From IMG/VR virus record IMGVR_UViG_3300037408_000887, positions 1 through 49,836 of that record: a DNA stretch of 49,836 nt. The stretch is one strand, 5' to 3'. This DNA comes from a virus. Lineage: Duplodnaviria; Caudoviricetes. Shown one piece after another: positions 24,543-43,964 of this stretch (its first letter is position 1; each line of letters opens with the position of its first letter). Both the position numbers and the translations under genes were made by a program. Under the pieces are notes generated by a model. It did no database searches. It saw only the letters and a list, made by a program, of their open reading frames with translations, and was not told the DNA's origin.

Positions 24543-27500
24543 TCAGTCATTATATTCTCGTTTTTCATATTCGAGCCACCTTTTGCAATCATCAGCGAAT
24601 CTCATCATGACCTCATGATGGTGGTACTTGTTCGCATCTTCTTCCGTTTTTTCTCCGTCCTTTATTTTTTGTGTCCATTCCTCAATAACCGACCTGTTGG
24701 CATATGCATAGTTCAGGAGGATTTCTTCTGCATGACTCACGACATCATCAATGGATTTCACCCGCAAGGAATAGCCAACATTCTTGCCATCCAGAACGGA
24801 AAAGACTATCATCTCGCGGAGTGCAAGTCTTATAAAAAACTTGATATCCTCCTGAGAAAAGGAACATCCGGAGGGATGGTTGTGAATAAAAACTTTTGCA
24901 CCCGACACATTCTTGATTTCTTCCGGAGAAAAAGCCACTTCATTTTCACCACCTTCTTTCTCCAGAGATATTTTTCCTCCATGATTTATCACGAGACACC
25001 TTTCATGATCCAACCCGGAATACTTAACTCGGAAAAGTTCGATGGGATCAGTAATAGACAATTCTTCTTGCGCTGGTTGTTCTGTCGCGGCTCCCGCCGG
25101 TTGACGATTTTCCTCTGTCGCCGTTCTTCCGGATGGAGGGTCCGTCCTTTCAACCGCTCCGGTATCAGGATTTCTCCAATACCAATTGCCATCTTTCCTT
25201 TGCCACTTGCCTGACTTCTGGACCGTTCCCTGCGGCCCTCCCTCGGGCCCCTCGGGCTCATCCTCGAAATCATCCCCAAGCATAAATTGAGCGTACTCCT
25301 TGAGTGCCTGCCTTGTCTCTGCCGGGACGGTACGTTCATCATATTCCTTGAATATCGCCCACAATCTATTCTTGAGATCGGAAAGTTCTCTGAGTGATTT
25401 CATTACTGATGACCCTGCCGGGACCATATAGAAAACGCCCGGGCGTCCATCACGATCGTAATTCCATTTATCCGGGGCATACTGATCATCCCAATCGGCG
25501 AAATCAACAACTTGCCATCCTGCCTTTGCATATTGCCACGCCAGCCAGAACCCGAGACAATCCAACTTTCTCGCTCCTAGGGCGAATGCTTTATCCATCA
25601 TTTCTTTAAGTCGCCCCTTGCCTCCGGAGAAAACGGAGATAAGTTCTCCCTGATCTGTAATTGCAAAACCAGATTTCCCATCCCGAGAAAGATATGTCGT
25701 CGCATTCTTCTCTCCATATTCTCCGGGGGAGTACGGGGTAACCCATAGCCTTTTTTCCTCGGGAATATATTTATCGCGGTTTTTCACGAACTCCTCGGCA
25801 TCAGCTTTTATAATTTCTCTGATATGCTTTTCTTCAATCGCGACTCTCTGAGCCTGTGTCGTCGCCTCAGATGGCGGCTTGGATATTGCCTCGGCTTTTG
25901 CCTGTTCTTGTTTTTTTCTTTTCTCCTCGGGATCATCCGGGGTTGCCCCACGAGTCGGAGGTTTATAAGGCATCTTGTTCCCGAACTTATCCCTTATCCA
26001 CCAACGGCCATCCTTGGTCTGCCATGGTCCCTTCGCAACCCTTCGGAGACCGAGAAGAACTCTCGCCTTATTGACCTGAGACTTGAGTTCGCGTTTCGCA
26101 TTCTTCATTACTTGCGCGATTCTGATTTCTCGTTCGAGCCCCTTCTTCACCTTGTTCAACCGTCCCCGGAGAATTGCTTTCCTCGCATTCTCATGATCGG
26201 CAACGAGTTCCCGGCCTATCTCATCCAGAATCCGCTCATCTTCTTCGGGAAGGAAAATAATCGGATAGTACCACTCTCCTGACTTCCCTCTCGACTTTCT
26301 CACTTTTGATTTCTTAACATCCATTGACGCCGTTTTCGTCTGACCCCCTTCTTCCTGTTGGTCTTTATAAAAAGATTTCATCCGCCTCTGTAAATATGCA
26401 TTAAGTCTCCTCATTGATACGGAATCAGGATCGAAATCAAGAACCGCATGCCGTGTCCCGTTCATCTGAAATCCATACCGCTCCCATATCTCCTCACCAC
26501 GAGGGAGAAGAAGCAATTCCTGAACCGACCTTACATTTTTTACAGAAGCAATTTCATCTTCGGAAAATTCAATCCCCTCTCTTTCTTCATTCCTCATTGA
26601 CGAAACAAGTTTTGAAACCTGATAATTGTCGAACATATACTCGAACCCATATTTCGCCCACGTCACGAATCCATTGAAGTTCCCGGTCTTGAATGCATTG
26701 ATTTTATATTTCAGTTTTGCATCCTCATAACTCAACCCTTCATGATCTGCAATCATCTGAACTTTTTCCTTCATTGTCATGCCGTCGCTTTCACCCGCCG
26801 CATAGCAATGTATCGCCGTCGCATTGAGTTTTTTGGCAGTAACAAACGTCTGGAAAATCCCCGACGCCATCATGTCGGGATGAAAATCAGGATGCTCAGG
26901 GTTGACACGAACCAACCCGCCATATACCGCAAGCCCCTCCCCCGTCCGTTGCAGAGTGAGATCGGCAGAGAAGGGGGCCTCGTTCAAGTCGGGGTTTATC
27001 AGAATATCGATCCTGTTGCCGTCTATGCGGTTTATATCGATGATATCGTTTTCTCTCAACGCACCCGTCACCTGAACGACATCCTCAATCGTTGCAGGCC
27101 ATCCGTTTTCCACGAGGAGGTCATTGATTTCCTGATCTGTCTTACCGGCAATATTTCCGTTATACCTCACATTTGAATATTTCTTATACCCCGTCCTGTC
27201 AATCTTCGATGCGGCACTTTTCATTTCCTCGACCAGAGATTGAGTAACCGGAGGAGGAGGAGAAAGCCTCTTGACGGTAAGATCACCACCGGACGTTCCC
27301 TCTATCGCATCAGGGTCGTCCGAAGAATCGTCATCAATAAAGTCGTCATCCCTTCTATCTTGCTCGTATGAATCAAAGGCATCGTCGATATCTTCCATCA
27401 TTTCTTCCGGATTGTAACGATCAGAGCCTTCCCGAATTTCTCCAATAATCTCGTTGATATGATCTTGACGCCACTCGGCAATGTCCTCATTCCGCGCCCT

Positions 27501-29756
27501 CTCGTTCATGTAGTCGCTAAGCATGTCCGCGACTCCATCTCTCCAATCAAACTCAGCGAACTCGTTTATCAAGTCGACGTACCCGCTTCGATCCCCATCC
27601 CGATATCGTTCATACATATCTGCATAATTTTCGAGACGCTTCTTGAAATCATCAAGATCGATTTCGCCATACTCAAGGTCCTCAAGATCGGCACGGATCA
27701 TATCGTTATGGAAATCATGCATCTCGGGAGCATCATCAAATAACTTTTGAAGGATGTCCCTCGCCGTATCCCAATCTTTATCCTCGATTGCCTTTGCGTA
27801 TCTCTCGGGGATTTTCAAGTCCTCATAAGCATTTTTAACATTCGTCCTTCTTCTCATCCCGGACAACATTAAGCCCGGAAAGTTTCCCGGGAAAAAAGTA
27901 GTATCATTTGGATTGTTCATTTCCGAATTCAGAAATTCATTATATGCGCTTGCGGTAAGATAGGGAGCATACTGCTTGATAAAGTCATCGCGTAATTTTT
28001 TCGCCTCATCTATTTTTCCATCGTTATATAGTCGAGTTCCCTCTGCGACAACCGCACTCATTTTTTCTATAAAGGCATCGGTCTCTCCCTCTCCAGAGCC
28101 CTCCATGTCGAAAAGCCTATTGTCCAGATCGCGCATCTCAGCCCGAAAAAGAACTTTTTCATTTATCTCAAGACCTTTGTTCAAAAAAGATTCAAGGCTC
28201 TCAAGATAGTTCTCGAAACCTTCCGCGCCATCAACCCCCGTCGCATCTCTCGCAGGATCGACAAACCCGCCTGCCCCGACAAGAAACATCGCCTCATGCA
28301 AGAGGAGCCTTGCCTCATCTGTATCGCCACGATCGAATGCCTCTTTCGCTTTTGCCTGAGCCTCCGTAAGTATTTTTCTCGCCTCCTCTTTTGTCGGGAT
28401 GCTTTCGGTTTTCGGGATATCGCGTCCACTAGGAAGTGTGTTCCCTCCATTTCTGACATTTATTTCTTCCTCACTCAATCCCTCGGGGTTTTCCTGAATA
28501 GGAAATCGTTCGAGAAGTTTTTCCTCTTGTGCATCAATAAGATCGTTGAGCCGATCGCTTTCAACTTCACGCTCCGAACGTTCTGCCTCACTTCTTGCCC
28601 GTCTTATTATATCCTCAAAGTTGGTTCGATGGTTTATCATGCTCGATGATAAATCGGCAACTGGATCATCCCTACGCATTATTGCATCTATATTCGCTTG
28701 CTTCTGCTCAGGAGACATGGCAACCTGATTTTTTACCCAATCGACAAGAATGGATTTCGCACGGTCCATATCACCGTTTTCTTTCGCGGCCTTTGCGCCA
28801 GCGAGTGCCTGTTCCCATCCTCCCACCATTTCGTCGATGTCTGGTATTTCTTGAAGTCTCGGCGGCCATGGGGATTGGACTTCTTCGCCCTCGGGACGAT
28901 CCTCGGATTCTCTCCCTGTTGTTTCTCCGGGCCTTATCGTCGTGGCGTTTTCATTGAGATCGTCGACCCATCTCCGCAAATCGAAATCTTGAAACCGGCC
29001 CTCTTGGAGTGGCCCGAGATCGGATAAAAGTTTTTCACGTTGTTCATCCGAGAGAATGCCTTGATTTCGATATCCATTAACGAGAGAGAGAAGTTGCCAA
29101 TAAGCATCAGCCCCTCTCCCCGCCTCAATAGTCTCGAATGAGGAATCAAAAATATCGCGGCCCTCTGCATCAGGAAATCCGATATCAGGAACATTATTCG
29201 ACATATACCGATTCTCTCCCGTCGCCTCGTTGAGAAAATCGACAAGAGAGAAGTCCGCGAATTGATTGTCCTTGTGCCTGAGAATTTCGTCCGTCAATGC
29301 CCTCGCGGCATCTGTGCTAATGACTCCGGTCCTTCTCATGTTCTCGACGAAAGAGCCGAGAGAATCGACGGCATCATCCATCCGCCCTTCGGATAATGCT
29401 TGCTTGAATTCGGATCTTGCATCCGCCGCGCTATCTCTCGACGATAACGGATGATCACTTTGCGCCTCGCCCCTCTGTCGTCCCCCGGGAGGAGTCGTCT
29501 GCTCAACGTTTCCCGTCTCGGGATTGCGCCAATACCAATTGCCGTCGACCCTTTGCCACTTCGACGATTTCGCAACGGCCATGACCTCTCGACGATGCTT
29601 CATGAGTTCAACATCATTTCTGGTTTTGTGAACAAGTAACCTAAGTTCTGTTTTGACATCCCCCGATTCACGGGCCTTGAAAATGTGATATGATAATTGT
29701 TTATTGACTGCGGATAGTTTCTGAAAAAGGGCGAGTTTTTTATTCATCGATTTCAC
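24543..29756 (-). CDS. 1737-aa polyvalent head-associated protein with two GNAT-like domains and a C-terminal JAB/MPN-like domain
   Basis: Lies between portal and MuF. GNAT-like 1: AIHCYAAG...NGFVTWAKYGF. GNAT-like 2: GELISVFS...GARKLDC...YAKAGW. JAB-like: E...IHNHPSGCSFSQED. Three copies of a Trp-rich motif. Confidence 0.8.
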   Translation of the reverse strand: MKSMNKKLALFQKLSAVNKQLSYHIFKARESGDVKTELRLLVHKTRNDVELMKHRREVMAVAKSSKWQRVDGNWYWRNPETGNVEQTTPPGGRQRGEAQSDHPLSSRDSAADARSEFKQALSEGRMDDAVDSLGSFVENMRRTGVISTDAARALTDEILRHKDNQFADFSLVDFLNEATGENRYMSNNVPDIGFPDAEGRDIFDSSFETIEAGRGADAYWQLLSLVNGYRNQGILSDEQREKLLSDLGPLQEGRFQDFDLRRWVDDLNENATTIRPGETTGRESEDRPEGEEVQSPWPPRLQEIPDIDEMVGGWEQALAGAKAAKENGDMDRAKSILVDWVKNQVAMSPEQKQANIDAIMRRDDPVADLSSSMINHRTNFEDIIRRARSEAERSEREVESDRLNDLIDAQEEKLLERFPIQENPEGLSEEEINVRNGGNTLPSGRDIPKTESIPTKEEARKILTEAQAKAKEAFDRGDTDEARLLLHEAMFLVGAGGFVDPARDATGVDGAEGFENYLESLESFLNKGLEINEKVLFRAEMRDLDNRLFDMEGSGEGETDAFIEKMSAVVAEGTRLYNDGKIDEAKKLRDDFIKQYAPYLTASAYNEFLNSEMNNPNDTTFFPGNFPGLMLSGMRRRTNVKNAYEDLKIPERYAKAIEDKDWDTARDILQKLFDDAPEMHDFHNDMIRADLEDLEYGEIDLDDFKKRLENYADMYERYRDGDRSGYVDLINEFAEFDWRDGVADMLSDYMNERARNEDIAEWRQDHINEIIGEIREGSDRYNPEEMMEDIDDAFDSYEQDRRDDDFIDDDSSDDPDAIEGTSGGDLTVKRLSPPPPVTQSLVEEMKSAASKIDRTGYKKYSNVRYNGNIAGKTDQEINDLLVENGWPATIEDVVQVTGALRENDIIDINRIDGNRIDILINPDLNEAPFSADLTLQRTGEGLAVYGGLVRVNPEHPDFHPDMMASGIFQTFVTAKKLNATAIHCYAAGESDGMTMKEKVQMIADHEGLSYEDAKLKYKINAFKTGNFNGFVTWAKYGFEYMFDNYQVSKLVSSMRNEEREGIEFSEDEIASVKNVRSVQELLLLPRGEEIWERYGFQMNGTRHAVLDFDPDSVSMRRLNAYLQRRMKSFYKDQQEEGGQTKTASMDVKKSKVRKSRGKSGEWYYPIIFLPEEDERILDEIGRELVADHENARKAILRGRLNKVKKGLEREIRIAQVMKNAKRELKSQVNKARVLLGLRRVAKGPWQTKDGRWWIRDKFGNKMPYKPPTRGATPDDPEEKRKKQEQAKAEAISKPPSEATTQAQRVAIEEKHIREIIKADAEEFVKNRDKYIPEEKRLWVTPYSPGEYGEKNATTYLSRDGKSGFAITDQGELISVFSGGKGRLKEMMDKAFALGARKLDCLGFWLAWQYAKAGWQVVDFADWDDQYAPDKWNYDRDGRPGVFYMVPAGSSVMKSLRELSDLKNRLWAIFKEYDERTVPAETRQALKEYAQFMLGDDFEDEPEGPEGGPQGTVQKSGKWQRKDGNWYWRNPDTGAVERTDPPSGRTATEENRQPAGAATEQPAQEELSITDPIELFRVKYSGLDHERCLVINHGGKISLEKEGGENEVAFSPEEIKNVSGAKVFIHNHPSGCSFSQEDIKFFIRLALREMIVFSVLDGKNVGYSLRVKSIDDVVSHAEEILLNYAYANRSVIEEWTQKIKDGEKTEEDANKYHHHEVMMRFADDCKRWLEYEKREYND

Positions 29757-29946: not shown

Positions 29947-31500
29947 CTACATTCCCGGTATCATGCCGCTCATCCCACCCGCTCCTCCTCCGGGGATGAG
30001 TTCTTGCGGAATCTGCTGTTGTGAACTCTTGGGCAGATCGAACTGCGGGTCAGCATACGGGTCCATGTTCATCTCATCAACACGGACTTCATTCACACTC
30101 CATATTCCGGAGTCAACCATTGATCGGTATTTCGAGATTTCTTTTTCCTCTGACATCTGAGTACGGAAGTCAAGTCGATATCCCCTCCCGAACTTGAACG
30201 GAATGATGTCATTATTGAACTGCATTTCCATCGCATAGAGAATCGGGACGATGGATTTCTCTTGGTCGATACGTTCTTGTGATTCCGATGTCGCACGTCC
30301 TGACGTATCGGCCGATCCTGTAAGATTGACCTCAAGGTTTGAGAGATTGAACACGAGCGCAATTTCTTCTCGGATCATCCTCTGCCTGTCCAGTTGAGTC
30401 GCGAGAGTATCTGATCTCGAAAGATCGAGAACCAAGGGCCTCCCGTATCCGGTCAGAGTTCTGATCGCATGCTTTCGCATTTCGTTCAGCTTATCCTCAA
30501 CGCGCCGCTCCTCCTCGGGGTCTGCAGGGATATCGAATCCCTCCTCTCCATTCCTGAAATCCCCGAACGGATTATTCCCTCCGAAAACGACGACCTTCTC
30601 GGGGAACGTTGACCCGTCCGCCTTTTGCGCCATCAACTCATCGAAGAAAAGATTCTCGGCAATTTTATTAACGAGACAATCGAGCGGGACAAAACCGTAT
30701 GGCCTCGCCGAGAGCGGGACATGGTTTACGTGGGTTATCTCATCCTTGAAGAATATCTGCGGCTCAAGTCCATCACATATCTGAACGAAACACGCAGGGC
30801 CCCCGGCATAACGGGACCTGAGCGGAAAGACGGTTCCCCCGGGGAGTATATAAATATTGTCGACGGTCTTGGCATCCTGACTCGCCTCTTTATAAATTGA
30901 TACGCCGCCATGGATGAGAAGATCACCGGCATATTGTTTCGCAAAATCGATCCACCGGTCTTGGTTGTTCGGGTGTTGTAGCCATTCGGATATTTCATCG
31001 GCGCGGTCTTGTCTTTCTGATTGCACCCTGCGCTTCCACCTTAAAAGCGCACGGTCGAAATTCGAGAGGTCCGGTAAACATTCGGGGAGTTCGGCCCTGA
31101 TTATTTGTGCTATCTTCGACCTTCCGACAAGATGCTCGATGTCGTCCGACTTTCCGTATTCATCGTAAAGCATTTTCGCATCCTTGAGGGTCGCGACGAT
31201 TTTGTCCTCGTTTTTCTTTTCAGGAACGACTTCCCATTCAACCGATGATATCCGGTTCATGCGGCCAGAGATAACGCCGAATATTGGGGCGCACAATTGG
31301 AAGATGGCAAGCCTCTCATAAACAGAGAGCGCGAAAACAGGATATTGGAAATCCCCGGACAGAAGGTCTCCGTCCTTGGTCCTTCCGGTAACGCCGACGA
31401 TCTGAGATAGTGAATAGGTTCGGTGTCCCCTCCCGGGATCCCTCTGTCGCCTCCATGGGTCTCCTTGCGAAAGTAACTGCTCAATGCTCATCATATACAC
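29947..31500 (-). CDS. Portal protein (HK97-like)
   Basis: F.......DLLIHG, YG..PL and IALVF...N.VR motifs; follows the terminase. Confidence 0.9.
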   Translation of the reverse strand: MYMMSIEQLLSQGDPWRRQRDPGRGHRTYSLSQIVGVTGRTKDGDLLSGDFQYPVFALSVYERLAIFQLCAPIFGVISGRMNRISSVEWEVVPEKKNEDKIVATLKDAKMLYDEYGKSDDIEHLVGRSKIAQIIRAELPECLPDLSNFDRALLRWKRRVQSERQDRADEISEWLQHPNNQDRWIDFAKQYAGDLLIHGGVSIYKEASQDAKTVDNIYILPGGTVFPLRSRYAGGPACFVQICDGLEPQIFFKDEITHVNHVPLSARPYGFVPLDCLVNKIAENLFFDELMAQKADGSTFPEKVVVFGGNNPFGDFRNGEEGFDIPADPEEERRVEDKLNEMRKHAIRTLTGYGRPLVLDLSRSDTLATQLDRQRMIREEIALVFNLSNLEVNLTGSADTSGRATSESQERIDQEKSIVPILYAMEMQFNNDIIPFKFGRGYRLDFRTQMSEEKEISKYRSMVDSGIWSVNEVRVDEMNMDPYADPQFDLPKSSQQQIPQELIPGGGAGGMSGMIPGM

Positions 31501-34555: not shown

Positions 34556-34741
34556 CTAGAGGGTGCGGCCAATCGCATCGATGATCTCCGACACTCCTCC
34601 ATCTGCGCGAAGTGCCGATATATGAACCGTTCGATGGACGATTGGACCACAATCCTCATGATCGACGACGACCTCAAGATTCCAGTCGAGATCGATTTTC
34701 TTAATTTCCAAAACCTTTGAACCAAAAAGTGTTCGGATCAT
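34556..34741 (-). CDS. Small hypothetical protein
   Basis: ATGA overlap with the peptidase gene; GGAGGG RBS. Confidence 0.55.
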   Translation of the reverse strand: MIRTLFGSKVLEIKKIDLDWNLEVVVDHEDCGPIVHRTVHISALRADGGVSEIIDAIGRTL

Positions 34742-35469
34742 TCTTCCCTCCCTTCGGGCGAATATAAATCAATCACCTTTTGCGCGTCGATAACGGAAAC
34801 CTCATCACGGAAATCATCATGCCCTCTGAAATCAATGACATTAGTGTCCCGATAATGCATGATACTATTATAGTCATAATCATATTTTCTATAATCGTAA
34901 AATCGTGGTTCGCTTGTCATGTAAACCTGTGAGAAATACAGAACACCCTTATCTTCGGGGAATGCCTCAACCAATATGGTAATATAATCATCACGATCGG
35001 GTCTTTGGTGTTCATGCTCAAGGCCAATAATATGGCCCAACTCATGCAACCAACAATAACGCACGGTTTTATGACACTTACCTCTCTGAACTTCCGTGAG
35101 TCCACCATGCACATCAATAGTCTCCCCCGATGATGAGCGAGAACAATATTCATCTCCAAAAAGATAATACTGACTCACCGAAATATTTTCTCCGGGGCCA
35201 GTCCATCCTCCTCCGCCATCTACGTCATATCTTATTATCGTGATAAAAGACTCATGATCAGCATCCGATAAATCAACATCGATGAACTCAACGGCGAACT
35301 CGGTCTTTATACTCCACTCCACCATGCATGACCGCAATTCTTTATATTCATCAATACTGAAACCTATCGCACGATACGGGATTTTGCCATCAATCCACAA
35401 ACGATTTCCATCGTCGTCATAACATGCGAATGAAAGAAAAACAAAAAGGATAAATATTATTTTTTTCAT
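34738..35469 (-). CDS. Astacin-family (M12A) zinc metallopeptidase, predicted lipoprotein
   Basis: HELGHIIGLEHEHQRPDRDDYI zinc motif and YDYNSIMHY Met-turn; signal peptide MKKIIFILFVFLSFA-C. Confidence 0.9.
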   Translation of the reverse strand: MKKIIFILFVFLSFACYDDDGNRLWIDGKIPYRAIGFSIDEYKELRSCMVEWSIKTEFAVEFIDVDLSDADHESFITIIRYDVDGGGGWTGPGENISVSQYYLFGDEYCSRSSSGETIDVHGGLTEVQRGKCHKTVRYCWLHELGHIIGLEHEHQRPDRDDYITILVEAFPEDKGVLYFSQVYMTSEPRFYDYRKYDYDYNSIMHYRDTNVIDFRGHDDFRDEVSVIDAQKVIDLYSPEGREE

Positions 35470-39792: not shown

Positions 39793-40425
39793 CTATTTAA
39801 CCCCCGAGAATAAATCTTTTATCGGGATGGTTTTCCCCACCCTGTTTTCCCCGGAAAGAAATTTATTTTCTCGTGGAGATTGATTAAAGATATCTCTCGC
39901 CCTAGAAAATGACTCATAGTTTTCGATCGCATCCCTTACGAGGACCAGATGAGATTTCATCGCTTCTCCGACTATTCCATATTCTTTTAAATCATCATAT
40001 TCGATATATAAGTCATTGTAAAGACAAAAAAATTCTTTATCGAGAATGTCAAGATCGTCGAAATTACTCCCGGGAGAATAAACTTTTCTCCTGAGTTCCT
40101 TCGCTTTTTCTATTATTTTTTTTATGTCAATTTTTTTCCAATTATCTCGCGCATATTTGATTTTCCCGATCACCCCTCCTTCTCCACTCAAGTCAAGAGC
40201 AGATGATCCAGAAATTTCTCCATACGCCGACCGTATAAAAAACAGAGAAGGGAAAGTTTTATACGGGTAAGTAAAAACTATTTGGTCGTATAATTGAGCG
40301 TAATCATTTATCCCTGCAGACTTTGACCATTTTTCAATGTCCTCAATGTCGACCTGTTTTACTCCATCATATTTTTCTGAAAGTCTCAACGTAAACTGTT
40401 CAAGGTCCATTATCTGCTCACTCAT
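39793..40425 (-). CDS. Hypothetical replication protein (possible helicase loader/inhibitor)
   Basis: AAGGAGG RBS; N-terminal helical domain ending FPS...I, reminiscent of G39P-like loaders (weak). Confidence 0.45.
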   Translation of the reverse strand: MSEQIMDLEQFTLRLSEKYDGVKQVDIEDIEKWSKSAGINDYAQLYDQIVFTYPYKTFPSLFFIRSAYGEISGSSALDLSGEGGVIGKIKYARDNWKKIDIKKIIEKAKELRRKVYSPGSNFDDLDILDKEFFCLYNDLYIEYDDLKEYGIVGEAMKSHLVLVRDAIENYESFSRARDIFNQSPRENKFLSGENRVGKTIPIKDLFSGVK

Positions 40426-40502
40426 CCCCGGCCTCCTTATACGAAATTCGTGTACTTGCTGTTATATGACATGGCTTAACTTTGGCTCGCCATCGTGGCT
40501 CG

Positions 40503-40790
40503 CTAATAGCTATTATAAAATCTTATTTTATAAACACCATCCGGTATTTCAGATATTATAATCTCATAGCCAACTTCCATATCATTATTATAATCTTTTA
40601 CTGGTATATCTATTTTAAGCTTTTCTTCCAATAAATATTTTTCTGGATATTCACTCCCAAAATAATCAGCCGTTTCTTTCGGTAAAAGTTTTATTCCAGC
40701 TTCCATACAAGCCTTTAAAACTTTTGCATGTTTCTGATATAATTCATTTTTATCAGAAATAAAACCCTTTACATTGGTTGACATTCCCAT
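40503..40790 (-). CDS. Cassette 1 ORF, hypothetical 95 aa
   Basis: GGGAGGG RBS; AT-rich codons; lies inside unit 40461-40865. Confidence 0.8.
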   Translation of the reverse strand: MGMSTNVKGFISDKNELYQKHAKVLKACMEAGIKLLPKETADYFGSEYPEKYLLEEKLKIDIPVKDYNNDMEVGYEIIISEIPDGVYKIRFYNSY

Positions 40791-40850
40791 TTTACCCTCC
40801 CTACGTGTTCGGCGTCCTGCCTCACACTTAATAAATTTTTACTGCTAATC

Positions 40851-40951
40851 GCCACGTCATATAACAAAGCGTAAACAAAATGCTAAAAATACTTAACCCT
40901 TTTCAATTCACTTTTCCTGCGCACTTCGTTTACGCTTGAAAAGTTGTACGA
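40851..40951 (+). repeat. attC-like site 1
   Basis: CATATAAC-AAAGC-GTAAACAAAATGC ... GCACTTCGTTTAC-GCTTGAAAA-GTTGTAC. Confidence 0.8.
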
Positions 40952-40959
40952 AAGACGGC

Positions 40960-41148
40960 TTAACGTATATCTCCGCCAACATATTCAGTAACACATTCTC
41001 CATATAAATACATTTTGCTAACCTTAACTATCCCTTCTGCATCTATATTACCAACTACCACTAAGAATAACGATTCCGCATTTTCCCCCTCTGCTTCTTC
41101 AACTGCTTCTCTAATCTTTTCCGCATCAAGTCTTAATTCAAATTTCAT
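40960..41148 (-). CDS. Cassette 2 ORF, hypothetical 62 aa
   Basis: GGAGG RBS; lies inside unit 40943-41182. Confidence 0.75.
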   Translation of the reverse strand: MKFELRLDAEKIREAVEEAEGENAESLFLVVVGNIDAEGIVKVSKMYLYGECVTEYVGGDIR

Positions 41149-41165
41149 ATTTTATCCTCCGATTC

Positions 41166-41253
41166 GCCGTCCATCGTACAACATCGCATACCCGTTCGCT
41201 TCGCCAATCCTCCGCTACGCTACGGACTGCGGGTATGCTTTACTGTTAAGCGA
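41166..41253 (+). repeat. attC-like site 2
   Basis: GTACAAC-ATCGC-ATACCCG ... CGGGTAT-GCTTTACT-GTTAAGC. Confidence 0.8.
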
Positions 41254-41260
41254 AAGCCAG

Positions 41261-41467
41261 CTAAACTTTTCTTGACCATATAAACATTTTTCTTTTGTAA
41301 TACTTATTTATTAACCAATACCAAACCGTAAAAATAACTTTATGGCGAGTCTTGAATATTGTTTCTTTTTTAGAATTGCACGTATGGCTAATAGCTATCT
41401 GATATTCCGCTGGCCTTCGCTTAACACGGCGTAAGCGTAAGCCGAATAAATTCTTAATCCATTTCAT
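41261..41467 (-). CDS. Cassette 3 ORF, basic 68 aa, initiating inside attC-like site 3
   Basis: AGGAGG RBS and ATG lie in the attC loop; the frame stays open across the left arm. Confidence 0.65.
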   Translation of the reverse strand: MKWIKNLFGLRLRRVKRRPAEYQIAISHTCNSKKETIFKTRHKVIFTVWYWLINKYYKRKMFIWSRKV

Positions 41468-41514
41468 ATTATCCTCCTCTCCGGCCTACGCCTACGCCGG
41501 TGTATGTTAGTCGA
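41409..41514 (+). repeat. attC-like site 3
   Basis: GCTTAAC-A-CGGCGTAAGCGTAAGCCG ... CGGCCTACGCCTACGCCG-GTGTAT-GTTAGTC. Confidence 0.8.
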
Positions 41515-41713
41515 AACGCTCGGACACTTTCGGTAACAATCTATGTCTTATCGCCCACCAGTAAAACAAATCAAAGAAAAACTCACCCTGATAAAATCCT
41601 ATTGCAAACAGACTTGAATCATAATCGCAAGTGTCAAAATTCATTATCTTAATACTTATTGTATTATGGTTCTTCCAGAGCTCAAATTCTATTTCAAGCG
41701 GTATATATCTCAT
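41507..41713 (-). CDS. Cassette 4 ORF, hypothetical ~68 aa
   Basis: AGGAGG RBS before ATG 41713/41716; the stop codon lies in the GTTA core. Confidence 0.75.
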   Translation of the reverse strand: MRYIPLEIEFELWKNHNTISIKIMNFDTCDYDSSLFAIGFYQGEFFFDLFYWWAIRHRLLPKVSERFD

Positions 41714-41731
41714 CATATCCTCCTGTGTGAA

Positions 41732-41811
41732 GTCCGAGCGCATCGACTAACAACGGGTAAGCGTTCGCTTTGCACATGAGCACACGTCGCTTACCCTGTT
41801 CTGTTAGCGGA
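41732..41811 (+). repeat. attC-like site 4
   Basis: GACTAAC-AAC-GGGTAAGCG ... CGCTTACCC-TGTTCT-GTTAGCG. Confidence 0.8.
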
Positions 41812-41820
41812 AATAACCGC

Positions 41821-42009
41821 CTACTCTTCTGCGTCAATAGGTTCCCATCTGTCAACACGACATCCGGTACACGGATAATCATTACCTACACCACAACTCA
41901 TTCCCGCCAATTGTCCAGCGTTCCACTTGCACGTTTCACACGACTGCTGTTTAACGGCGGTTACATCCGCTAACAGAGCGTATCTGACATGCTCCGCGTC
42001 CGCATCCAT
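41821..42009 (-). CDS. Cassette 5 ORF, Cys-rich 62 aa, crossing the left arm of truncated site 5
   Basis: CETCKW...C....PC.GC....WEP motif; weak RBS. Confidence 0.55.
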   Translation of the reverse strand: MDADAEHVRYALLADVTAVKQQSCETCKWNAGQLAGMSCGVGNDYPCTGCRVDRWEPIDAEE

Positions 42010-42016
42010 GCCGTTA

Positions 42017-42193
42017 TCATAACTTGCCTTTTTTCTTCCTCGGATAGCTTATAAAACACCACCCTATAATTTCACCTTTTTTATTATACTGGTGGACTTC
42101 CATTCCATCCGTTCGCTTATCCCTTGCAATAATTTCATATCCTTCTTCAAGCCGATGGAATAAATCTTTGTATAAACATTTATCACATTTCAT
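42017..42193 (-). CDS. 58-aa hypothetical protein (not in ORF track)
   Basis: MKCDKCLYKDLFHRLEEG...KKKGKL*; fills the gap between its neighbours. Confidence 0.55.
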   Translation of the reverse strand: MKCDKCLYKDLFHRLEEGYEIIARDKRTDGMEVHQYNKKGEIIGWCFISYPRKKKGKL

Positions 42194-42206: not shown

Positions 42207-42491
42207 CTATTCACATTCTTTTTCAGGGAGAAAAAATCTTCCATACCGTCGATAATACTCTCCCATCCATTCTGAAAAATTCTTTGTCTCTGCAACCAGA
42301 CTATCTTCCCAATCCTCGGCTCGATATTCCCCCGATGATATTGCCTCGCGAGTATGCTTGATTGATTGATATGATATACATATCCAAGTCTCTAGTTCAA
42401 CCTTATAATCAATTCTAGGAGATGCACATCGAGAAAATCCGATCATGAGCGCAATCGCCATCAGACTCAATACGATAATTATTCTCATCAT
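42207..42491 (-). CDS. Small exported / lipoprotein-like protein
   Basis: Signal-like MMRIIIVLSLMAIALMIGFSR-C; GGGAGG RBS. Confidence 0.6.
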   Translation of the reverse strand: MMRIIIVLSLMAIALMIGFSRCASPRIDYKVELETWICISYQSIKHTREAISSGEYRAEDWEDSLVAETKNFSEWMGEYYRRYGRFFLPEKECE

Positions 42492-43168
42492 CTCGTAACC
42501 TCCCGCTTTTTAAAATAATCTTCTACGACATTTGATTTCTGAGCCCCGTATTTTCTTTCCCGTCTATCACAGGTCAACGCCGCCGCTTTCCAGTCTGTTA
42601 TCCGGTTTCCACCCTTTTGTTTCCACCCGTTCGATTGATAATGACCCCACGCCGACTCATAGTCAAATTTATAATCCTTCGATTTACAATAATCGATCCA
42701 GTCTTTAAGAGACGGATTTACCACTTTCTCTTTCTTGTTAAAGCATTTACTTGTTTCTTCAAGCATTTGTTGTTCAGAACCGGTAGGGCGGTCAACCGGT
42801 AGGGTGGTTTCCTGAACCGGCGGTTCAGAAATTGAACCACCGGACACGATCACGTTTATATACTGCTCTCCCAATGTTCCGTCACCGTTCCTTCTCTGGA
42901 CATACTCAATCAGCTTTTTCTTTTTCAGGAATGATTTCGCACGTTTCAATTTCGCATCACCCCACCCGAGACCGTTTTTCAAATATATATCCTTGGCCTT
43001 AACGGAATTCGTACTCTGCAGACGGGCCGTGAACATGAGATGCAAATACAGGGACATTGCCTCTATTCCCCGGGGGGAAGCGAGAAACATCTTGTATTTT
43101 GAAATGGTGAGAAAAAGAATATCGCCGTCAAGGTCTATCCTGATATTTCCAGTATTGATTGACTTCAT
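42488..43168 (-). CDS. Replication initiator (lambda O / replisome organiser-like)
   Basis: N-terminal wHTH (LY.HL...LGWG..KL.RA...L.....I.Y), a low-complexity linker, and C-terminal W.HY.SNGW......I.DWKAA. Confidence 0.8.
   Translation of the reverse strand: MKSINTGNIRIDLDGDILFLTISKYKMFLASPRGIEAMSLYLHLMFTARLQSTNSVKAKDIYLKNGLGWGDAKLKRAKSFLKKKKLIEYVQRRNGDGTLGEQYINVIVSGGSISEPPVQETTLPVDRPTGSEQQMLEETSKCFNKKEKVVNPSLKDWIDYCKSKDYKFDYESAWGHYQSNGWKQKGGNRITDWKAAALTCDRRERKYGAQKSNVVEDYFKKREVTR
42725..42845. other. Putative replication origin (iterons plus AT-rich tract) inside the initiator gene
   Basis: AACCGGTAGGG twice, with further GAACCGG / GAACCACCGG variants, next to a T-rich tract containing AAGCATTT twice. 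Confidence 0.6.
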
Positions 43169-43583: not shown

Positions 43584-43964
43584 CTATGCTCTCACGAAAT
43601 ATCGAGAGTCAAGCGTGAATTCTTTGATTTCACCATTGAGTTTTACAACTATGGCAAAATCATCCTTGTGCGATTGTTTGTTCCCAATTGATCTATGCGG
43701 CTCAAACACATCGCATACGACGACTTCTTCACCGAAAAGCGGAAATTTCGCATAAACGAATTCTTTTGATTTCCACTTCACGATATCGCCGATTTTCAGA
43801 TCGGGAATCGGAGAAATCTGGTCAATGAGGTCTCTCTGTTGTTCAATAGAAAGAACCTCCCTTGACTGGTCAAGGCCCGAAACACCCGCAACGGACCCCG
43901 AAACACCCGCAACGGACCCCGAAACACCCGCAACGGACTTTAAAAATTCTTCCACGCCACTCAT
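43584..43964 (-). CDS. Hypothetical protein with SH3/KOW-like C-terminus and in-frame repeat
   Basis: AGGAGG RBS; LKIGDIVKWK motif. Confidence 0.7.
   Translation of the reverse strand: MSGVEEFLKSVAGVSGSVAGVSGSVAGVSGLDQSREVLSIEQQRDLIDQISPIPDLKIGDIVKWKSKEFVYAKFPLFGEEVVVCDVFEPHRSIGNKQSHKDDFAIVVKLNGEIKEFTLDSRYFVRA
43876..43938. repeat. Three perfect 21-bp tandem copies (SVAGVSG)
   Basis: cccgaaacacccgcaacggac three times. Confidence 0.95.

Follow-up and report, generated by a model that had tools for sequence, protein, structure and literature searches.

An array of reversed integron-type gene cassettes in a wetland phage, possibly served in trans by an insertion-less tyrosine recombinase

In a classical attC site each arm has a central spacer of 5–6 nt, and the L'' box carries an extrahelical G accompanied by a further T; some attC sites recombine without extrahelical bases (PMC5027507, accessible text). 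The insertion of the integron integrase IntI is considered essential for the recombination of folded single strands (PMC8138268, PMC9668308; accessible text of both). Integrase-less attC clusters in phages are already known: Qi, Rajabal, Ghaly, Tetu and Gillings (2023) describe 17 CALINs in phage genomes, and IntI1 recombined five of the six phage attC sites tested, the single failing site being P12002L_attC1 (PMC9892861, accessible text). An earlier note on the DNA analysed here was not aware of its array being characterised as a phage gene-shuffling system; phage-borne clusters of the kind are covered by this publication. Off-site insertion of the attG/SALIN type explains how a double-stranded genomic site can become the origin of a small integrase-less cluster (Loot et al., bioRxiv 10.1101/2022.09.11.507474, accessible text).

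The window, i.e. the whole stretch of DNA that was analysed, is the entire virus record IMGVR_UViG_3300037408_000887 (49,836 bases, linear, CheckV completeness 93%) from a wetland. The phage is contractile-tailed and carries almost every gene on the minus strand. Both contig ends (1–1163 and 49750–49836) lie within one repetitive tail-fibre-like gene, so little of the genome appears to be missing; the record probably represents a nearly whole, circularly permuted genome. Leptospira phages LE3 and LE4 are the sole cultured phages matched by the major capsid protein, at 52% identity, and a related terminase cluster includes one member whose name derives from a Spirochaetes MAG. These two kinships point to a host that is probably a spirochaete; the ribosome-binding sites of the phage read AGGAGG and its kin are the Leptospira phages. 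The genome also encodes a 1737-aa protein (24543–29756, minus strand) between the portal and head-morphogenesis genes, with a single short PHROG match, and an astacin-family (M12A) peptidase (34738–35469, minus strand; Pfam E 1e-14) immediately ahead of the packaging genes. Three exact tandem copies of 21 nt at 43876–43938 form a 7-residue repeat in the ORF at 43584–43964 (minus strand), and the contigs of run X1 break there. Promoter-like sites number 12, compared with 7.0 ± 2.9 in shuffles, and were given no weight.

The array is located in the early replication operon, between a DnaD-like initiator gene plus two small genes and a 210-aa gene. Its features and the two named flanking genes are as follows:

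39793–40425, minus strand: 210-aa phage gene directly after the array, weak G39P / lambda P helicase-loader-type likeness
40453–40463, plus strand: S0, terminal half-site TAC+5+GTT, hairpin absent; fold z +0.6, not significant
40461–40865, no strand: unit 1 core, GTT to AAC, 33% GC, own ends matching
40503–40790, minus strand: unit 1 gene, 95 aa, widespread viral family, function not known
40866–40942, plus strand: S1 hairpin, spacers 5 and 9 nt, assigned to unit 1; z −1.9
40943–41182: unit 2 core; ORF 40960–41148 (minus strand), 62 aa, own ribosome-binding site
41183–41244, plus strand: S2 hairpin, spacers 5 and 8 nt; z −1.5, weak
41245–41425: unit 3 core; ORF 41261–41467 (minus strand), 68 aa, start codon within S3
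41426–41505, plus strand: S3 hairpin, spacers 5 and 10 nt; z −4.9
41506–41751: unit 4 core; ORF 41507–41716 (minus strand), 69 aa, real small-protein family
41752–41802, plus strand: S4 hairpin, spacers 5 and 8 nt; z −4.8
41803–41974: unit 5 core, 49% GC; ORF 41821–42009 (minus strand), 62 aa, start (ATG 42009) outside the unit
41975–42023, plus strand: S5, left arm only (AAC+5+GTA); z −1.3
42488–43168, minus strand: DnaD-like replication initiator gene upstream of the array (PHROG 186, E 1e-5)

The five units with self-complementary ends proposed in the earlier note were recovered with all ten ends in place. Over 20 bases, the left end and the reverse-complemented right end of the same unit agree at 14, 16, 17, 18 and 17 positions (units 1–5), whereas the 20 cross-unit comparisons reach 6–12. 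Outside the array, 4 of 5272 GTT..AAC pairs spaced 100–600 nt apart reach 14/20. The array forms a chain of five hairpin-joined self-complementary units; neither 100 block shuffles nor 14 related phage records gave a chain longer than two. A chain of four in relative G063, obtained with the hairpin rule dropped, was taken as chance. The own-end stems share a common form of nine pairs, a C/A mismatch and 4–9 further pairs. The spacer pattern AAC+5+RTA..TAY+8-10+GTT on the plus strand was likewise confirmed for S1–S4. The minus strand folds better than the plus strand in all four spacers, and as minus strand S3 and S4 are beaten by none of 200 shuffles, S1 by 9 and S2 by 15. When circles are folded, alternative assignments of hairpins to units fold alike and hence do not discriminate. 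A search of the array against Rfam matched no family, and no terminator-like site was found at the array hairpins.

All five array ORFs lie on the minus strand. The earlier claim of one small ORF per unit stands as to their number, but in units 3 and 5 the ORF begins beyond the unit, within the site on the right; the loop of S3 contains both the ribosome-binding site and the start codon (ATG 41467) of the unit 3 ORF. The stop codons of units 2, 3 and 5 directly adjoin the terminal stem. S5, which terminates in an 11-nt palindrome containing the stop codon of the upstream gene, is likely the decayed site of the oldest cassette. The loops of S1 (40885–40910) and S3 (41446–41471) are 73% alike, and an early stop closes the S1 copy; a likeness of 40285–40306 to the left arm of S1 falls within a gene and was dismissed as chance. 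The unit 4 protein has 24 matches at E≤0.001, the best 75% identical, some of them long repetitive proteins. Units 2–5 have no homologue among the 374 loci compared. For unit 3, PADLOC returned one weak match (E 0.006), which was set aside. The GC content of the array is 39%, against 47% for the genome, and that of the units spans 33–49%.

Several classical features are present: AAC and GTT triplets bound the hairpin in 4/4 spacers, all five units have complementary core sites of their own, and four sites within 1 kb agree with the definition of a CALIN as at least two nearby sites without an integrase. Others are absent. The spacers are 5 and 8–10 nt instead of 5–6 nt per arm, with the best stem register offset by 3–5 in 4/4 sites; the L stems are unbroken in S1 and S3, and a bulge in place of the extrahelical L-box G is possible only near the loop in S2 and S4; and 5/5 ORFs lie on the strand opposite to the classical one (top strand, before the gene's own attC). 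An intI gene beside an attI, the mark of a complete integron, is absent from the window as well. A comparison site beside a true IntI (L130, in G022), in contrast, is symmetric and has the extrahelical G. Judged by their sequence, the window sites are not classical attC. P12002L_attC1, the published site on which IntI1 failed, matches their geometry exactly, in the class of 5 and 8–10 nt. P12002L_attC2 has a right arm similar to theirs and was recombined by IntI1 according to the accessible text of PMC9892861, so that IntI may act on the window sites. Polaribacter phage P12002L carries at least four sites of this class on its early-gene strand (8 detector hits versus 0–2 in five shuffles). They lie at 30009, 32798, 38880 and 39123 (L151), through the early operon, and are more than the two assayed in PMC9892861.

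Units of the same geometry are exchanged exactly at the conserved triplet in other genomes. The unit 1 protein matched 140 other proteins, and 97 loci were examined, the majority of them site-free and about ten with the gene enclosed by GTT and AAC. In an alignment of nine loci, similarity ends at the AAC that follows the gene, beyond which seven different sequences are found. Four share the upstream hairpin and diverge at its far AAC. At L001, L030 and L036 different upstream sequences are joined at the same GTT, and L036 and L037 have the downstream side in common but not the hairpin; a single fixed crossover is therefore insufficient to explain them. The tree of the unit 1 protein is unresolved, and cassette-borne copies do not group in it. 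In wetland run X2, a 226-nt contig holds a copy of S1 that differs at 11 of 93 bases (88%); other sequence adjoins it at the AAC side and also at the GTT side, there after 12 bases of the next unit; a ribosome-binding site and a stop codon at its loose ends read on the minus strand, the polarity of the window. A search with an S1-like pattern gave 32 loci with one true site (L109), and a pattern for the outer-stem subtype gave 13 loci with three real hairpins and no near kin of the window.

The polarity of such units was examined in one hairpin family of the same geometry, scanned in IMG/VR. Its 39 distinct rows include four loci preselected by gene; 34 have both ends, and five were dropped as chance or incomplete. 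In ten rows the GTT was called about 16 nt early, an offset passed over by the clustering window. All 34 complete copies differ in their upstream neighbour, and their downstream sides fall into 28 clusters. In nine pairs the downstream gene is shared and the upstream neighbour is not, no pair shows the reverse, and three of the nine pairs remain once the four preselected loci are left out. The downstream ORF lies on the AAC+8 strand in 34/34 copies. The hairpin therefore moves together with the gene transcribed away from it, with the cut at AA/C of the coding strand. On two Bacteroidota plasmids, the gene lies on the AAC+5 strand and is followed by the site, which is the normal orientation. 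From the geometry that the window shares with the hairpin family and these plasmids, we infer that its plus strand is the top strand, that S0 is the entry site and that the genes are reversed. The integron-type reading of the earlier note is thus supported for the type of array, as is its crossover at G/TT of the plus strand, and its example junction (41245 to 40944) fits this polarity; the reversal of the genes, all on the minus strand, had been missed.

Units of this geometry are, in other genomes, tightly linked to a tyrosine recombinase that lacks the IntI insertion. Three viral records (G029, G012 and G031) encode such an enzyme of 267–289 aa at the downstream ends of arrays of 11, 4 and 19 detected sites. 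Two of the three have an IntI-like N-terminal domain (Pfam); the type stays below the TIGR02249 cut-off, and its best NCBIfam model, NF040815, is also below cut-off. The best 80 of 304 confirmed relatives yielded 72 distinct viral loci. At these, 260 sites lie upstream on the recombinase strand, two upstream on the other strand and nine downstream; 48 of the 51 loci with at least 1.5 kb of upstream DNA have a site, and 44 have two or more. Own ends in these arrays agree at a mean of 14.0/20, compared with 9.4 for neighbours, and perfect 7-base pairing joins own ends in 151/195 units versus 20/258 across the hairpin. These geometry counts are partly circular and not independent tests, since such sites served to tune the detector, bulges lower its score, and the 80 loci are the closest kin of one protein (59–100%). 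The loci look Bacteroidota-like, unlike the window phage with its AGGAGG sites and Leptospira-phage kin. As far as their sequences tell, the recombinase has the position and direction relative to the sites of a classical intI, and only the cassette genes are turned. A half-site directly precedes the recombinase at 71/72 loci under a loose pattern. S0 agrees with its consensus AAC+5+(R/T)TA in position and spacing and differs in sequence. Read on the gene strand, the window sites (AAC+8-10 / 5+GTT) belong to the same class as those of the enzyme-linked arrays.

Among the 34 records with such hairpins, most of them fragments, two also hold the insertion-less enzyme and none an IntI above cut-off; a search for integron integrases in 23 and 34 records found a true IntI in one bacterial MAG only. 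The enzyme family is not always linked to arrays, since phage Ingeline has the recombinase with no sites within 7 kb of the gene, and no array is visible at the Persicobacter recombinase locus. At the locus in G031 (L194:321-16573), a 15-kb array with 19 detected sites ends at the recombinase, and many of its genes resemble DNA methyltransferases by eye. In G029, the last hairpin and the half-site are separated by an empty unit (L192:7424-7455) of roughly 30 nt whose ends are complementary. On a Flagellimonas plasmid (L197:5893-8801, NZ_CP092416.1), two sites of the same class, a dihydrofolate-reductase-family gene and erm(F) adjoin a member of the same recombinase family.

The window phage itself has no such enzyme gene, as the earlier note had correctly observed: the tyrosine recombinase profile PF00589 gives 0 matches at E≤10 in its genome, tblastn with IntI reaches E 1.1 and with the insertion-less recombinase E 0.68 at best, and neither a recombinase gene beside S0 nor a serine resolvase was found. 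The slot held by the recombinase in other arrays is occupied by the 210-aa gene, with its ribosome-binding site at 40432–40437. Its likeness to G39P and lambda P has ESM Atlas feature scores of 0.90–0.91, to be read as a lead only, and among 222 candidates no homologue was found except itself. The flanking genes had no relatives in IMG/VR and the protein set; among cultured phages, blastn found nothing beyond short chance matches to the array, and among plasmids it found no match to S4. None of the 27 terminase relatives has a tyrosine recombinase. In the comparison with related phages for gene gain or loss proposed in the earlier note, 14 distant relatives fetched whole and phage LE4 proved to have no array, and no close relative was found. 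The excision joint it suggested looking for (e.g. 41245 to 40944) does not occur in the contigs of runs X1 and X2, which drop rare variants. Run X2 contains the window phage at low depth and in the same order where covered, its uncovered stretches being no evidence; X2 contigs depart from the window sequence at 42437 and 43284, with loose ends of 255 nt.

Taken together, these observations make it very probable that the array originated by integron-type site-specific recombination. It is favoured here, as moderately probable, that a short Xer-like tyrosine recombinase devoid of the IntI insertion acts in trans on the five units with their reversed genes. The link is drawn from geometry: no close relative of the phage was found, the enzyme was seen in no spirochaete, and S0 resembles the half-site in spacing but not in sequence. 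The borrowed host IntI of the earlier note is not supported as written, given that two classical attC features fail and that the enzyme linked to this geometry elsewhere is not a classical IntI. A milder version, in which this is an ordinary phage CALIN moved by a classical host IntI that tolerates atypical sites, for instance a spirochaete integron integrase, is rather unlikely but deserves weight. Treponema carry integrons and the window phage probably infects a spirochaete; the AAC/GTT cores and the pairing of own ends follow the classical pattern, and 51/58 Treponema-type cassettes have fully complementary cores (PMC4909258). IntI1 also worked on five of six phage sites, and extrahelical bases are dispensable in some attC (accessible text of PMC9892861 and PMC5027507). 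However, spacers of 5 and 8–10 nt without an L-box G differ from the symmetric, G-bearing site beside the true IntI (L130), the published site that matches them failed with IntI1 (PMC9892861, accessible text), and 0/34 records with such hairpins have an IntI over cut-off.

It is improbable, although compatible with the proposed origin, that the array is a frozen relic, i.e. a block acquired a single time, through homologous or illegitimate recombination with another phage or with an array of a host, and now immobile. The decayed S5, the weak folding of S1 and S2, the ERF annealing protein encoded by the phage, and the lack of an excision joint in the contigs of two runs and of any relative with the array would agree with this. 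The five reading frames, the own-end stems and the four hairpins are all intact, which argues against it, as does the half-site at the expected end, which overlaps the leader of the next phage gene; furthermore, the differences in unit GC (33–49%) suggest separate arrivals. Very little speaks for RNA regulatory stems or chance repeats in place of recombination sites. The transcribed strand does include the hairpins, and a ribosome-binding site lies in S3, so a regulatory side effect is plausible, but there is specific pairing between own ends 170–400 nt apart, the breaks between homologous units fall at the triplets, and neither an Rfam family nor a terminator-like site was found.

Under the favoured reading, service in trans by the insertion-less recombinase, a cassette would consist of one core and the hairpin on its right (plus strand). 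The gene-coding minus strand would fold and be cut at AA/C, which is G/TT on the plus strand, and in the excised circle the core's own ends would be rejoined into a perfect stem. S0 is likely an attI-like entry site; new cassettes would be inserted there, at the promoter-distal end, making unit 1 the youngest and unit 5, with its decayed site, the oldest. S0 could also be a genomic insertion site of the attG/SALIN type. Cassette genes would be expressed by read-through of the early operon, some start signals lying inside the hairpin loop, and the recombinase may come from the host or a co-infecting element.

A wider proposal is more tentative and somewhat doubtful: a second class of integron, with a short Xer-like recombinase without the IntI insertion, asymmetric bulge-free hairpin sites and a pool of reversed phage cassettes, extending beyond the Bacteroidota, from which the window phage captures and reorders early genes at S0 in trans. 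If true, an enzyme without the insertion acting on differently shaped hairpins would overturn the essentiality of that insertion (PMC8138268, PMC9668308; accessible text). Integron finders depend on the insertion and on a site of classical form; platforms of this kind would be overlooked or labelled CALINs. Reversed cassettes would make every captured gene expressible from the early operon of the phage itself, and may also separate the cassette pools of phage and host in function. The window would be an enzyme-less example outside the Bacteroidota, by itself a weaker kind of example.

The array is best assigned to a non-classical class with reversed genes, as a representative that has no enzyme of its own. 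With classical attC/IntI systems (PMC5027507, PMC4889954; accessible text) it shares AAC/GTT cores, a folded single-strand site, complementary cassette ends and a single terminal entry site, but its genes lie on the folding strand, its end pairing extends over 15–20 nt with a conserved mismatch, and it has no IntI. Insertion at attG/SALIN sites is shown, in the accessible text, for IntI and classical attC in bacterial chromosomes, and phage arrays or reversed genes are not described there. The CALINs of Qi et al. resemble the window in having at least two attC-like sites with small genes in an integrase-free phage, and the sites of P12002L share its geometry and polarity. The accessible text of PMC9892861 notes divergent attC directions in P12002L, but reports no systematic gene reversal, asymmetric spacers, terminal half-site or alternative enzyme; a literature search conducted with most subscription papers outside it likewise returned no paper on systematic gene reversal in such arrays and no report of an insertion-less enzyme at them. 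Closest are the enzyme-linked arrays (G029, G012, G031 and L199–L278): they differ from the window in ending at a recombinase, in the sequence of the half-site and in their Bacteroidota-like origin, the host of the window phage being probably a spirochaete, and they share with it the site geometry, the gene polarity, the long own-end pairing and the position and spacing of the downstream half-site.
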